Below, one piece after another: positions 1,520 to 4,767 of a DNA stretch of 64,000 bases (positions are counted from its first letter, which is position 1; each line of letters starts with the position of its first letter). Made by a program: the position numbers and the translations under genes. The stretch spans positions 160,001-224,000 of the forward strand of contig CAVRZA010000002.1 in the NCBI GenBank assembly GCA_963725665.1. The letters are read 5' to 3'. The notes beneath the pieces were generated by a model that was not told the origin of the DNA, did no database searches, and worked only from the letters and a program-made list of their open reading frames with translations. Origin of the DNA: an uncultured Actinomycetes bacterium (GTDB lineage Bacteria; Actinomycetota; Thermoleophilia; UBA2241).

Positions 1520-2191
1520 ATGGCCATCAAGATCCTCCTCGTCGACGACGAGCAGATGGTGCGCATGGGCCTGCGGCTGATCCTCGAGTCGGAGGACGAC
1601 TTCGAGGTGGTGGGCGAGGCCGGCGACGGCGCCGAGGGCGTCGCGCTAGCGAAGAAGCTCGACCCCGACGTCGTGCTCATGGACATCCAGATGCCGGGCA
1701 TGAACGGGCTCGACGCCACGCGCGAGATCAAGACGCTGGGCAGGGAGGAGAGCTCGCGCGTGCTCATCCTCACGACCTTCGAGCTCGACGAGTACGTCTA
1801 CGAGGCGCTGCGCGCGGGCGCCAGCGGCTTCCTGCTGAAGCGCACGCCGGCCGAGGACCTGATCGCCGGCATCCGCGTCGTGCACAGCGGCGACGCCCTG
1901 CTCGCCCCGTCGGTCACCAAGAGGCTGATCGACGAGTTCGCGGCCCGACCCCTCCCTGAGGGCACGAGCCAGGTCGAGGCGCTCGAGGACCTCACCGACC
2001 GCGAGCGCGAGGTGCTCTCACTGATCGCCAAGGGTATGTCGAACGCCGAGATCGCCCAGTCGCTCTTCCTCTCCGAAGGCACTGTCAAGACGCACATCAA
2101 GCGCATCTTCTACAAGCTCGGGCTGCGCGACCGCACGCAGGCGGTGATCTTCGCCTACGACGTCGGCATCGTGCAGCCGAAGAGCTCCTAG
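1520..2191 (+). CDS. NarL/LuxR-family response regulator
   Basis: Receiver motifs LLVDD and DVVLMDIQMP; C-terminal LTDREREVL..GMSNAEIA..SEGTVKTH HTH; directly after the kinase. Confidence 0.96.
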   Translation: MAIKILLVDDEQMVRMGLRLILESEDDFEVVGEAGDGAEGVALAKKLDPDVVLMDIQMPGMNGLDATREIKTLGREESSRVLILTTFELDEYVYEALRAGASGFLLKRTPAEDLIAGIRVVHSGDALLAPSVTKRLIDEFAARPLPEGTSQVEALEDLTDREREVLSLIAKGMSNAEIAQSLFLSEGTVKTHIKRIFYKLGLRDRTQAVIFAYDVGIVQPKSS

Positions 2192-3504
2192 GCCGGAGAG
2201 GCCGCTGTCACCTCCAGGCGGTCGAGGTCGTCGTGGGTCTCGCGCCGCAGCCAGACCTCGGCCTGCCCTTGTGCCACGGCGACCATAGCCGGCCGCGGGA
2301 CGCGGTTGTAGTTGCTCGCCATCGAGTAGCAGTAGGCTCCCGTCGCCGCGATCGCCACGATGTCGCCGGTCGCGATGGTGTCGGGCAGCGACGCGTGGTC
2401 GGCGACGACGTCGCCCGATTCGCAATGTCGGCCGACGACGCGCGCGGGGCTGCACTCGCCGGCTGCCGAGCGGCGTGCCGGGGCGACGGCGTGGTTCGCG
2501 CCGTAGAGGATGGGCCTCACGTTGTCGGACATGCCGCCGTCGACCACGACGAGCCGGGCGCCCTGCGCGCCGCGCTTGACCGCACCGACGCGGTAGAGGG
2601 TCACTCCCGCGTTGCCCACGACCGCGCGGCCGGGCTCGACCACCAGGCTCGGCCGGGCGATATCGCGGCAGGCCGCGGCGAGACGATCGCGCATGGCGTG
2701 GGCGAGCAGGCTCAGGCCGAGGGGGCTCTCGTCGACGTAGGTGATGCCGAAGCCGCCGCCGACGTCAAAGAGGGCGCTGGAGGCTCCCAGACGGCGCTCG
2801 ATCCGGGCGGCGAAGGCGGCCAGTCTGTCGATGACGGTCAGGTAGGGGTCGGCCGACAGGATCTGCGACCCGATGTGGGCGTGGAGGCCGCGAAAACGCA
2901 AGCCGCGCGACTGCAGCACCGCCTCGATGGCTTCCTCGGCGTCGTCCGGCTGCAGCCCGAACTTGGAGTCGGCGGACCCGGTCACGATGTGCGTGTGGGC
3001 GCCGGCGGCGACGGCGGGGACGATGCGGACGAGCACGTCTTGGCGCGCGCCCAGCCTCGTGGCGATCGCGTCGGCGCGCGCGATCTCCTCCAGGTTGTCG
3101 CAGATGAGCAGCCTGATGCCCACGCCGACGGCTCGCTCGAGATCTTCCGCGGTCTTGTGGTTGCCGTGCAGAGCGATCTGCGATGCGGGGATGCCGGCCC
3201 GCAGACAGGCTTCGAGCTCACCGCCCGAGGCGGCCAGGAACTGCAGTCCCTCGCAGGCCACGAGCCGTAGCAGCCTTCGGGACGTCAGGGCCTTTATGAC
3301 GTAGCGGGCTTCGGGGAACGCCTCGCGCACCTCACGGCAGCGCCGCTGGAGGTGCTCCTTGTCGAGGACGAGCAGGGGCGTCCCATATCTCTTGGCGAGG
3401 GTCGAGGCGGGCAGGCCGCCTATCTCGAGGCCTTCGACACCCCAGTGTGCGGAGACCGGCCAGGGGGTGGTCAGGGACGTTGGGTGTGAAACGAGCGTGG
3501 ACAC
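2188..3504 (-). CDS. lysA: Diaminopimelate decarboxylase
   Basis: YGTPLLVLD, YVIKA (PLP Lys), SKFG, HAHIGSQI, DVGGGFG, EPGR, HCESGD, GAYCYSMASNYN; GTG at 3504 preceded by GGAGG. The ORF stays open upstream to 3711. Confidence 0.9.
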   Translation of the reverse strand: MSTLVSHPTSLTTPWPVSAHWGVEGLEIGGLPASTLAKRYGTPLLVLDKEHLQRRCREVREAFPEARYVIKALTSRRLLRLVACEGLQFLAASGGELEACLRAGIPASQIALHGNHKTAEDLERAVGVGIRLLICDNLEEIARADAIATRLGARQDVLVRIVPAVAAGAHTHIVTGSADSKFGLQPDDAEEAIEAVLQSRGLRFRGLHAHIGSQILSADPYLTVIDRLAAFAARIERRLGASSALFDVGGGFGITYVDESPLGLSLLAHAMRDRLAAACRDIARPSLVVEPGRAVVGNAGVTLYRVGAVKRGAQGARLVVVDGGMSDNVRPILYGANHAVAPARRSAAGECSPARVVGRHCESGDVVADHASLPDTIATGDIVAIAATGAYCYSMASNYNRVPRPAMVAVAQGQAEVWLRRETHDDLDRLEVTAASPA

Positions 3505-3705
3505 CAGAGACCTCCGGGTGAAACGAAGAGGAACGGGAGTGTGGCTCGCGGGGGGCGAGCCGGGGCGGAGCGCCCCTAGCGCTTTCGACGGGCTAGCGCC
3601 CCGTCTCTGGTGTGGAGGGCTGTGCGCGATGGCGCCACGGGGCGTTATGTTGCCGGGCTTCGCCGTCGCTGTCAAGAGTAGAAGGCCCCGGAGAGCGGTT
3701 CGACT
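3501..3705 (-). promoter_or_regulatory. Candidate structured cis-regulatory RNA leader of lysA
   Basis: 11-bp perfect inverted repeat (3501-3511 / 3603-3613) covering the start codon, an adjacent anti-SD CCUCC, and several nested hairpins. Confidence 0.6.
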
Positions 3706-3737
3706 CTGCATACTATTCTCAAATTAGGCACCACATT

Positions 3738-3766
3738 TTGCGTCTTCTGCATCGGAAACGTATACT
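3738..3766 (+). promoter_or_regulatory. Sigma70-type promoter of the arg operon (near-leaderless)
   Basis: TTGCGT-17 bp-TATACT; ATG lies 8 nt downstream with no SD. Confidence 0.65.
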
Positions 3767-3774
3767 CCGCGTTC

Positions 3775-4767
3775 ATGCTGTCTCTCCGTCCGACCATCGG
3801 GATCGTCGGCGCCAGCGGCTACACCGGCGCGCTGCTGGCCGAGTTGCTGCTCGGCCACCCCGACGTCGACCTCGTCGCCGTGAGCTCGAGCTCGCTGCGC
3901 GGCTCGCTCGTGTCACAGTCTCTGCCGCGCGTGCGCGCCGACCTCGCCTTCTGCGACGACGAGGAGGTCGGCGAGGTCGACGTGGCGTTCCTCTGCCTTC
4001 CCGAGGGTCAGGCGGCTCCGGTGGCCCGGCGTCTGCTGGACGGCGGCGCCCTGGTCGTCGATCTCTCCCCCGACTTCAGGCTCTCCCTCGAGGCGTACCG
4101 CGAGTGGTACGGGGAGCACCCGTGTCCCGAGTTGCTGCCCGGCGTCTACGGTCTGCCCGAGCTGCACCGCGACGAGATCCGTTCGGCGCGGCTGGTCGCC
4201 AATCCCGGCTGCTACCCGACGGCGGCTCTCCTCGCCCTTCACCCTCTGATCGGCTTGGGGCTCGTCGACGTCGTGATCGACGCCAAGTCGGGCGTCAGCG
4301 GGGCGGGCAAGACGCCGACCGAGCGCACCCACTTCTGCAGCGTTGATTCCGACCTCACGGCGTACGCCGTCGGCGGACACCGGCATCTGCCTGAGATCCG
4401 CGCCGGGCTGAGTGAGGACGGGCAGGCACCGCCGCTGACGTTCGTGCCTCATCTCGTGCCCCTCCAGCGCGGCATCGTCGAGACCGCCTACGTGCGCGTG
4501 CGCGAACTCCCGTCTGGCGACGAGCTGCGGCGTCTCTACCGCGACGCCTACGCCGAGGAGTCCTTCGTCGAGGTCGTCGACGAGCCGCCGCGTCTCAGGG
4601 ACGTCGTGGGGACCAACTACTGCCGCATCTTTCCGACCGTCGACGAGCGCGCCGAGCGCGTGCTGGTCGTGGCCGCCCTCGACAACCTGATGAAGGGTGC
4701 TTCGGGGCAGGCCGTGCAGAACATGAACCTCATGCTCGGGCGACCCGAGCACAGCGGGCTGCGCTAG
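3775..4767 (+). CDS. argC: N-acetyl-gamma-glutamyl-phosphate reductase
   Basis: IVGASGYTG, DLSPDFRL, VANPGCYPT, SGVSGAG, DNLMKGASGQAVQNMN. Confidence 0.97.
   Translation: MLSLRPTIGIVGASGYTGALLAELLLGHPDVDLVAVSSSSLRGSLVSQSLPRVRADLAFCDDEEVGEVDVAFLCLPEGQAAPVARRLLDGGALVVDLSPDFRLSLEAYREWYGEHPCPELLPGVYGLPELHRDEIRSARLVANPGCYPTAALLALHPLIGLGLVDVVIDAKSGVSGAGKTPTERTHFCSVDSDLTAYAVGGHRHLPEIRAGLSEDGQAPPLTFVPHLVPLQRGIVETAYVRVRELPSGDELRRLYRDAYAEESFVEVVDEPPRLRDVVGTNYCRIFPTVDERAERVLVVAALDNLMKGASGQAVQNMNLMLGRPEHSGLR

Follow-up and report, generated by a model that had tools for sequence, protein, structure and literature searches.

The L-box riboswitch, which precedes lysA in many bacteria and controls it in cis, is the sole cis-acting RNA control of lysine genes that we found in the literature searched; other regulators of lysA exist. 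The literature searched contained no lysine-linked leader-peptide or upstream open reading frame (uORF) attenuator. L-boxes precede lysA in Coriobacteriales (PMC5584792), and Seliverstov et al. 2005 (PMC1262725) state that they saw no conserved RNA structure upstream of lysine operons in Actinobacteria. Here, we focused on a 64,000-nucleotide (nt) stretch of DNA, referred to as the window, from an uncultured actinomycete of the thermoleophilian lineage UBA2241 (GenBank assembly GCA_963725665.1, contig CAVRZA010000002.1, positions 160,001 to 224,000), and within it on the ~134-nt leader of a divergent second lysA gene, read from the minus strand. The structured leader that an initial annotation of this DNA had noticed is confirmed. 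We see about an even chance that it is an attenuator that depends on a uORF and its ribosome, probably on a leaderless mRNA, and not a ligand-binding riboswitch.

Classical ribosome-mediated transcription attenuators, such as the trp, his, leu, and thr leaders, combine tandem regulatory codons with a U-tract terminator, and TnaC and SpeFL are metabolite-sensing arrest peptides with conserved nascent-peptide residues. In mycobacteria, leaderless short ORFs act as amino-acid-responsive attenuators by blocking a structure that sequesters the ribosome-binding site (RBS), according to the accessible part of Canestrari et al. (bioRxiv 10.1101/834739). Translation of speF orf34, as described in the part of PMC6386406 available to us, both blocks Rho and unfolds an RBS-sequestering structure.

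Comparison of the leader with described systems

The leader shares with the L-box its placement ahead of lysA and, on our reading, its action in cis. The initial annotation had judged that the sense strand does not look like an L-box, and searches of the window and the genome with Rfam covariance models bear this out. The L-box model (RF00168) gave no match up to an E value of 10 in positions 3300 to 3900 and none at the gathering score in the whole window; the complete genome was likewise negative, compared with 4 positives among 14 control genomes. The core conserved here spans ~20 nt, against 182 positions in the L-box model. When applied to the window and to the loci of its relatives, the Rfam 15 models assigned no family and returned only sub-threshold, miRNA-like hairpin noise, which lies outside the leaders in the relatives; in the window, two such hits, with scores of 17.1 and 12.7 bits, overlap the leader but are on the plus strand, opposite to it.

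Closer parallels are found among leaders read by ribosomes. Our leader resembles the leaderless polycysteine attenuators of mycobacteria in having a short ORF without a Shine-Dalgarno (SD) sequence at the probable 5′ end of the mRNA, in a duplex whose formation would be decided by ribosome position, and in belonging to the Actinomycetota. It differs in that a single invariant Lys codon, set between Arg codons at the extreme 3′ end of the ORF, stands in place of a run of cognate codons, and in that the target is lysA and not a cysteine gene; the two share no sequence similarity. Like the classical attenuators, it has a leader ORF that overlaps the first in a series of helices predicted to be mutually exclusive (GCGCT / AGCGC / GCGCT.. 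/ ..GCGAGC) ahead of an amino acid biosynthesis gene; unlike them, it has no U-tract terminator, no tandem codons, and no SD on the leader ORF, and its output would apparently be RBS sequestration, possibly with a contribution of Rho. With speF orf34 and TnaC, again as far as the available part of the source goes, it shares a short uORF with a conserved C-terminal part, a stop codon beside the decisive RNA elements, and a C-rich tract downstream, whereas its peptide is much shorter, poorly conserved except for the last residues, and without homology, and the gene is biosynthetic and not inducible. The uORF peptides do not qualify as arrest peptides of the TnaC or SpeFL type, given that no leader-peptide family in NCBIfam matched them and only the residues ..AL-x-R-K-R-stop are kept.

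A short upstream ORF with an invariant end

To compare leaders, we used six distinct sequences (the window and the loci L002, L031, L114, L115, and L120) and one partial sequence, X3, a window-type relative on a 449-nt contig that is ~89% identical. The comparison with X3 rests on its listed differences (7 more are unlisted), and only X3 covers the leader, with two further contigs (X2 and X7) covering the coding side only.

All six leaders contain a short ORF in the same place. In the window it occupies positions 3576..3638 on the minus strand (GTG, 19 further codons, and TAG), would encode the peptide VAPSRTALHTRDGALARRKR, and is probably leaderless; an in-frame TAA lies three codons upstream. 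The corresponding peptides are MWCLAPQMFCTRPALSRKR in L002, MWCPAPQMLRTRPALSRKR in L114, MLCVAAHDFCKRPALPRKR in L115, MRCARFISLFKRPALSRKR in L120, and MRCTAFTGPWFMHPVLSRKR in L031, each followed by the stop. The relatives start with ATG and the window with GTG, and no leader has an SD before the uORF, as a leaderless mRNA would require. The ORF measures 63, 60, 60, 60, 60, and 63 nt across the six leaders (19 to 20 codons), so that its length changes by 0 or 3 nt, even though its first 11 codons can hardly be aligned. Between its stop and the lysA start, the noncoding spacer varies freely (71, 78, 78, 80, 76, and 79 nt). In X3, start, stop, and frame are also kept, with four substitutions and no indels inside the uORF and indels just upstream of it. 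A short ORF with a start and a stop is thus conserved in place and frame in all six leaders and in X3.

The strongest conservation is found at the end of this ORF. Its final codons, CGA-AAG-CGC-TAG (Arg-Lys-Arg-stop), are identical in all six leaders, as is the following GGG(G)CGCTC. The resulting block CGAAAGCGCTAGGGGCGCTC (3568..3587, minus strand) covers the last three sense codons, the stop, and the start of the next helix, and is invariant except for one extra G in the window. Lys accounts for 2.1% of the residues in this proteome; Arg takes up 3 to 5 of the 19 to 20 uORF codons, which is not far from the expectation based on composition. A pause at CGA as a rare codon was considered and is not supported, CGA making up 11.6% of Arg codons. 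Taken with a uORF body free of codon-position bias (see below), the kept frame and stop fit a regulatory leader ORF, where what counts is not the peptide but that, and when, it is translated; they are in themselves no proof of translation.

A predicted helix sequesters the lysA start in the window

The lysA paralogue (438 amino acids; 2188..3504, minus strand) starts at GTG 3504-3502, since the N termini of its two closest paralogues align from there. It is preceded by the SD GGAGG at 3515-3511, the whole initiation region spanning 3501..3515. This alignment settles a concern raised initially, that the leader might simply be translated as an N-terminal extension from ATG 3711: the extension is ruled out and the leader is noncoding with respect to lysA. 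The same follows from the L002 lysA frame, which has only 11 further open codons upstream (454 versus 443 amino acids), and from the LysA equivalog hidden Markov model TIGR01048, whose match begins at residue 95 of the long form.

All of the helices named in the initial annotation are present on the minus strand. The most prominent is a perfect 11-bp pairing between ACACCAGAGAC (3603..3613), which corresponds to nt 26 to 36 of the uORF (codons 9 to 12), and GTCTCTGGTGT (3501..3511), which comprises the last G of the SD, the 6-nt spacer, the GTG, and one further nucleotide. It is part of the minimum free energy (MFE) fold of the 201-nt stretch 3480-3680 (−82.4 kcal/mol), which is more stable than its shuffles (−67.9 ± 4.5 kcal/mol; z = −3.2; 0 of 200 as stable). 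The pairing is also rare: a perfect 11-nt complement to the 20-nt SD/start target arose in only 3 of 5,000 dinucleotide shuffles of the upstream 156 nt (P ~0.0006), and 4 of 1,584 candidate gene starts in the genome have one, this lysA included. Opening the RBS of the window lysA is predicted to cost 17.25 kcal/mol, close to the 95th percentile (17.35) of a genome sample of 300 starts with a median of 10.85.

Between the two arms lie nested and alternative helices: GGGGCGC 3602-3596 with GCGCTCC 3573-3567 around CTAGC 3596-3592 with GCTAG 3580-3576, an alternative CGGGGCG 3603-3597 with CGCCCCG 3567-3561, and the hairpin GGCTCGC-CCCCC-GCGAGCC (3543..3561; arms 3561-3555 and 3549-3543). The anti-SD CCUCC reported beside the 11-bp helix does exist (CCTCC 3619-3615), yet it sits 5′ of the helix arm and therefore cannot pair with the SD while that helix is formed.

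Between the hairpin and the SD, positions 3516..3542 form a C-rich, G-poor pyrimidine tract; the 29 nt that lie between GCGAGC and the SD contain 14 C and 3 G. This bias is found in all six leaders (C 47 to 52%; 2 to 6 G in 29 to 38 nt), in which the tract ends at GAGG, followed by the spacer and the lysA GTG. In the genome, 36-nt windows with at most 3 G make up 0.066%. A scan of 3400-3900 for intrinsic terminators (a hairpin plus a U run) found none, the hairpins running into C/U-rich tracts that lack a U run. The genome contains a rho gene (634 bits).

Leader and gene form a conserved unit whose predicted pairing is rewired

Among 89 genomes of the family, a protein search found window-type lysA relatives (60 to 63% identity) twice in one other genome (G035), i.e., in 2 of 89 genomes including that of the window. 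Further relatives are on the metagenome contigs L114 and L115; the metagenome scan gave four loci, of which L116 has the same leader as L115, and L117, an argS-lysA type gene without the leader, was excluded. A third family genome (G017, contig C246) contributes L120, where the leader lies at a contig end and lysA is cut after a few codons. There, positions 1-48 are unrelated to the gene, the contig ending three codons into lysA in what we take to be sequencing adapter, an assembly artifact, and this hid the gene from the protein search. The leader with lysA is accordingly present in 3 of 89 family genomes. A pattern search with the block motif gave 3 of 401 genomes of the class, 3 of 89 of the order, and 0 of 400 sampled from the rest of the phylum. 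A covariance model of the leader (R1) run over the 89 genomes recovered only the four known copies (57 to 92 bits), the next match (31 bits) being inside a coding region, and a further scan of genome contigs yielded only LysA proteins of at most 47% identity among the best 80 of 590 matches.

The neighboring genes differ at every locus (HSP20; convergent trpA/trpB; argC and a response regulator). Since leader and lysA are kept together while their neighbors change, they form a conserved unit, and the adjacency to argC is incidental. Two contigs of G035 (C10 and C98; L002 and L031) have two diverged cassettes of leader and lysA in different contexts; the other type of lysA, described below, was not found in this genome (80% completeness). 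With 3 of 89 genomes, belonging to three genera, the distribution is patchy and suggests transfer or repeated loss. The leader is narrowly distributed, and the case for it is small and entirely computational.

In the five relatives, the start region is predicted to pair with a different segment. There, the best partner of the SD/start region is the 3′ arm of the hairpin that follows the uORF, together with CCUCC (nt 80 to 98). In four relatives this pairing amounts to −25.6 to −26.6 kcal/mol, a value reached by 4, 17, 16, and 25 of 1,000 shuffles; in L120 it is weaker (−20.0 kcal/mol; 63 of 1,000 shuffles). The relatives' larger hairpin, GGGCGCTCGC...GCGAGCGCCC, has the window hairpin 3543-3561 as the positional match of its 3′ part, and in X3 the only change in the latter is loop base 3550. 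RNAalifold predicted two consensus helices, one in the uORF end, pairing GCGCCCGGCGCU with AGCGCUAGGGCGC, and the other being the anti-RBS helix. In silico, the window and its relatives thus each have an RBS-sequestering duplex that overlaps or depends on the short ORF. X3, as far as its differences are listed, keeps TTGACA, GTG, TAG, and both arms of the 11-bp helix. Conservation in homologs, which the initial annotation had asked about, therefore holds for the unit of leader and gene but is not accompanied by convincing covariation, as discussed below.

Probable promoter element and transcript start

The AT-rich zone at 3705-3740, first proposed as the lysA promoter, probably does not have this function. 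The zone belongs to the side of the divergent argC, and positions 3705-3760 differ at 10 or more positions in X3. The conserved upstream element is instead a −35-like TTGACA (3670..3675, minus strand), a probable promoter element of the leader that is invariant in all six aligned leaders (L120 judged by eye) and without a listed difference in X3, where its flanks differ. TTGACA lies 30 nt from the uORF start codon in the relatives and 31 nt in the window, and a 1-nt deletion at 3646 restores the 30 nt in X3. A possible but weak −10, CAACAT (3647..3652, minus strand), is separated by 17 nt from TTGACA upstream and by 8 nt from GTG 3638 downstream; it is unchanged in the X3 list, and its geometry equals that of the divergent argC (TATACT, 8 nt, ATG).

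In X3, the 134-nt leader (3505-3638) has 6 differences, compared with 8 in the 31 nt that separate TTGACA from the uORF. So abrupt a change in conservation is consistent with a transcript whose 5′ end is the uORF start codon, and the mRNA is probably leaderless. In L002 (~3010-3080), L114 (~2240-2290), and L115 (~2260-2300), long perfect terminator-like GC hairpins of the upstream gene end 40 to 55 nt before TTGACA; in these loci, the lysA leader therefore forms a transcription unit of its own.

Proposed attenuation mechanism

The sequence shows the elements themselves, how rare they are, how they are conserved and spaced, and that no known RNA family is present; from this we infer the transcription start site, the translation of the uORF, the signal, and the direction of the response as follows. 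Transcription driven from TTGACA 3675-3670 would start at or within a few nucleotides of GTG 3638, so that the mRNA would open with the SD-less 20-codon uORF ending in CGA-AAG-CGC-TAG. In the window, the SD and start of lysA would be locked in the 11-bp helix, and because the 5′ arm of this helix sits inside the uORF (nt 26 to 36), every ribosome that reads the uORF would have to melt it. The site at which the ribosome dwells would then select among the mutually exclusive GC helices that follow the stop and thereby set whether the lysA RBS is free. The likeliest dwell point is the invariant Arg-Lys-Arg-stop end, which could sense the supply of Lys-tRNA, perhaps of Arg-tRNA, or the termination step; a ligand acting on the nascent chain is a further candidate signal. 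Any translating ribosome, or a second one queued behind a stalled one, may open the lysA start in the window.

In the relatives, the anti-RBS would consist of the hairpin 3′ arm plus CCUCC, and the 5′ arm, directly after the stop, would act as the anti-anti-RBS, with a segment inside the uORF competing for this 5′ arm. The result would be a chain of overlapping arms (uORF segment, stop codon block, hairpin 5′ arm, hairpin 3′ arm as anti-RBS, and SD/start). A ribosome on the stop would cover the first 7 to 10 nt of the hairpin 5′ arm, while one standing two codons earlier, on AAG, would leave the arm free. We propose that the spacing of AAG-CGC-UAG to the arm is invariant because ribosome position would decide the availability of the arm. 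During transcription, a race would follow in which the anti-RBS ends up either locked in the hairpin (lysA ON) or paired with the RBS (OFF). With rho present in the genome, the C-rich, G-poor tract could also serve Rho-dependent termination, either alongside this output or in its place.

Several features support this reading: the fixed spacing from TTGACA to the start codon, the kept frame and length of the uORF, its invariant last codons, the missing SD, the drop in X3 conservation at the uORF start, the one-nucleotide variation in the AGCGC/GCGCT repeat spacer, which suits an RNA loop, the strong partner of the SD/start region, the co-travel of leader and gene, and the precedent of the mycobacterial and speF leaders. 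Weighed against the contrary results below, they leave the ribosome-dependent attenuator about evenly balanced between being right and being wrong.

Contrary evidence and alternative explanations

A number of results weigh against the attenuator. Besides the small size of the comparison set, the 11-bp helix is confined to the window lineage and absent from the five other leaders, and the RBS sequestration in the relatives (10.5 to 14.9 kcal/mol) is ordinary against the genome median given above. Mutually exclusive helices are predicted in every leader, with neither support from covariation nor a consistent modeled switch: consensus pairs are mostly invariant and, where they vary (window and L120), often broken; the five double changes all come from single rows, with the structure derived from the same sequences, so that no convincing covariation was found; and in X3 a G-to-C change at 3601 breaks one pair in both nested helices, with no compensating change listed. 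We also modeled the ribosome as a mask in equilibrium folding at each codon, with 3′ boundaries of +10, +12, and +14. With the A site on CGA, AAG, CGC, or UAG, the masked ribosome gave no consistent opening of the RBS; opening was seen only at mid-uORF codons, by 4 to 8 kcal/mol (window, 17.2 to 9.5; L002, 13.0 to 8.4).

Other contrary results concern the uORF and its promoter. The tandem or repeated codons of the regulatory amino acid that characterize ribosome-mediated attenuators are not found in the six uORFs, which share a single conserved Lys codon, joined by a second in L115 and L120, and have no codon runs. The body of the uORF has no coding signature: the variable columns by codon position number 9, 11, and 10 of 20, the pairwise ratio of nonsynonymous to synonymous change (pN/pS) is 0.4 to 2.3, being ~1 outside the last residues, and all four X3 substitutions in the uORF are nonsynonymous. 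With no third-position bias and pN/pS in this range, the peptide body is not under selection. No consistent −10 is visible in the relatives' leaders, and a scan for σ70 consensus promoters found nothing. A genome-wide test of TANNNT-to-start-codon spacing gave only a weak peak, so that leaderless initiation is not established for this organism.

Part of this evidence is what one would expect if there were no regulated switch, that is, if the GC-rich leader merely set a constitutively low translation or stabilized the mRNA, with the short ORF and the helix as by-products of composition or descent. The ordinary RBS opening energies of the relatives, the neutral evolution of the uORF body at 68% GC, where open frames are common, the ribosome-mask modeling without a clear ON state, and the 5′-terminal 30 nt of the leader, whose fold is no better than that of shuffles, all fit this explanation. 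It does not account for the rarity of a perfect 11-bp helix, nor for TTGACA, start spacing, frame, and stop being kept in all sequences, and in X3 the stretch between the uORF start and lysA has changed less than the promoter spacer, its conservation being similar to that of the N-terminal lysA codons. We therefore regard the absence of regulation as unlikely, while taking it seriously.

A trans-acting factor, either an RNA- or DNA-binding protein or a small RNA, could instead recognize the invariant block CGAAAGCGCTAGGG(G)CGCTC and control lysA through it. Invariance of the block at the nucleotide level, including positions that would be free in a loop, would suit such a factor, as would the short inverted repeat AGCGC..GCGCT around the stop. 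The window, however, has one nucleotide more in the spacer of this repeat than the relatives (5 versus 4 nt), a difference better tolerated by an RNA loop than by a dimeric DNA operator, and the block is ~50 to 70 nt away from the probable promoter, on its downstream side. The cassette has no conserved regulator gene beside it, and the motif is unique in the genome, which leaves no regulon. This makes a trans-acting factor improbable.

The initial annotation had proposed a translational on/off switch, possibly a new RNA class responding to lysine, diaminopimelate, or a protein. Sequestration of the SD and start in cis stands, whereas a new ligand-binding class is not supported; the anatomy is rather that of an attenuator, the alternative that the initial annotation had itself named, because the start lies at a fixed distance from a −35-like hexamer, the ORF keeps its frame and has an invariant end, and the GC helices are predicted to be mutually exclusive. 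In a metabolite-binding riboswitch for lysine, diaminopimelate, or a related compound, the block and the nested helices would be the aptamer and the 11-bp helix the expression platform, the uORF being incidental. A fold steadier than its shuffles around a sequestered start, a 20-nt block unchanged across ~60% protein identity, a locus without a linked protein regulator gene, and a genome without an L-box are all compatible with this. Yet only ~20 nt are common to the window type and the other leaders, with the helices around the block rewired, nothing similar exists in Rfam, convincing covariation is lacking, and an aptamer would leave the fixed TTGACA-start spacing, the length changes in multiples of three, and the invariant stop unexplained, so that we hold a riboswitch to be very unlikely.

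The least probable of the readings is a termination-arrest peptide, in which free lysine (or diaminopimelate) bound in the ribosome would make it stall at the stop of the invariant ...Arg-Lys-Arg-UAG end and mask the post-stop helix arm, letting the anti-RBS pair with the lysA start and/or Rho load on the C-rich tract; if true, it would be a TnaC/SpeFL-like small-molecule sensor exerting feedback repression of an amino acid biosynthetic gene from a leaderless mRNA.

Two lysA copies and the surrounding DNA

The window gene belongs to the LysA family, its product scoring 407.5 bits against TIGR01048 (cutoff, 297.9) and having the diaminopimelate decarboxylases 2o0t and 1hkv as its closest PDB entries (E ~1e-90). 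The genome has two lysA copies. The other one (G000:C6:214526-215833; locus L032) is 43% identical to that of the window and of the type common to all relatives, the window copy being the divergent one. Upstream of it we observed TAGAAT, 9 nt, and GTG, without a long leader, so that a plain lysA and a leader-controlled one coexist in this organism. A blastn and motif search found the leader once in the genome, ruling out an origin as a repeat or mobile element.

The gene argC is encoded on the plus strand, divergent from lysA, with its start at 3775. In the region 3755-3777 it shows TATACT (3761-3766), 8 nt, and ATG 3775 without an SD, and is probably leaderless or nearly so. On the argC side of the AT-rich zone 3705-3760 there are two CTGCAT motifs, which might be repressor sites. 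Apart from lysA, the candidate starts with a perfect 11- to 13-nt complement up to 176 nt upstream are at ~3966-3986 (plus strand) in the window and at ~202505 of C11 and ~199931 of C6 (both plus strand) in the genome; the first is internal to argC and probably spurious.

Possible implications for lysine control in the family

Overall, the leader appears to be a cis-acting translational control element, most likely driven by the ribosome and the uORF and not by ligand binding, with a key helix that is specific to one lineage. If this is true, the use of a leaderless short ORF as an amino acid sensor would extend from mycobacterial cysteine genes to lysine and to an uncultured actinobacterial family, and a single codon could suffice for sensing as long as its distance from a helix arm is fixed. 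The same control logic would also have been rewired, with the anti-RBS placed inside the uORF in one lineage and in a hairpin arm in another.

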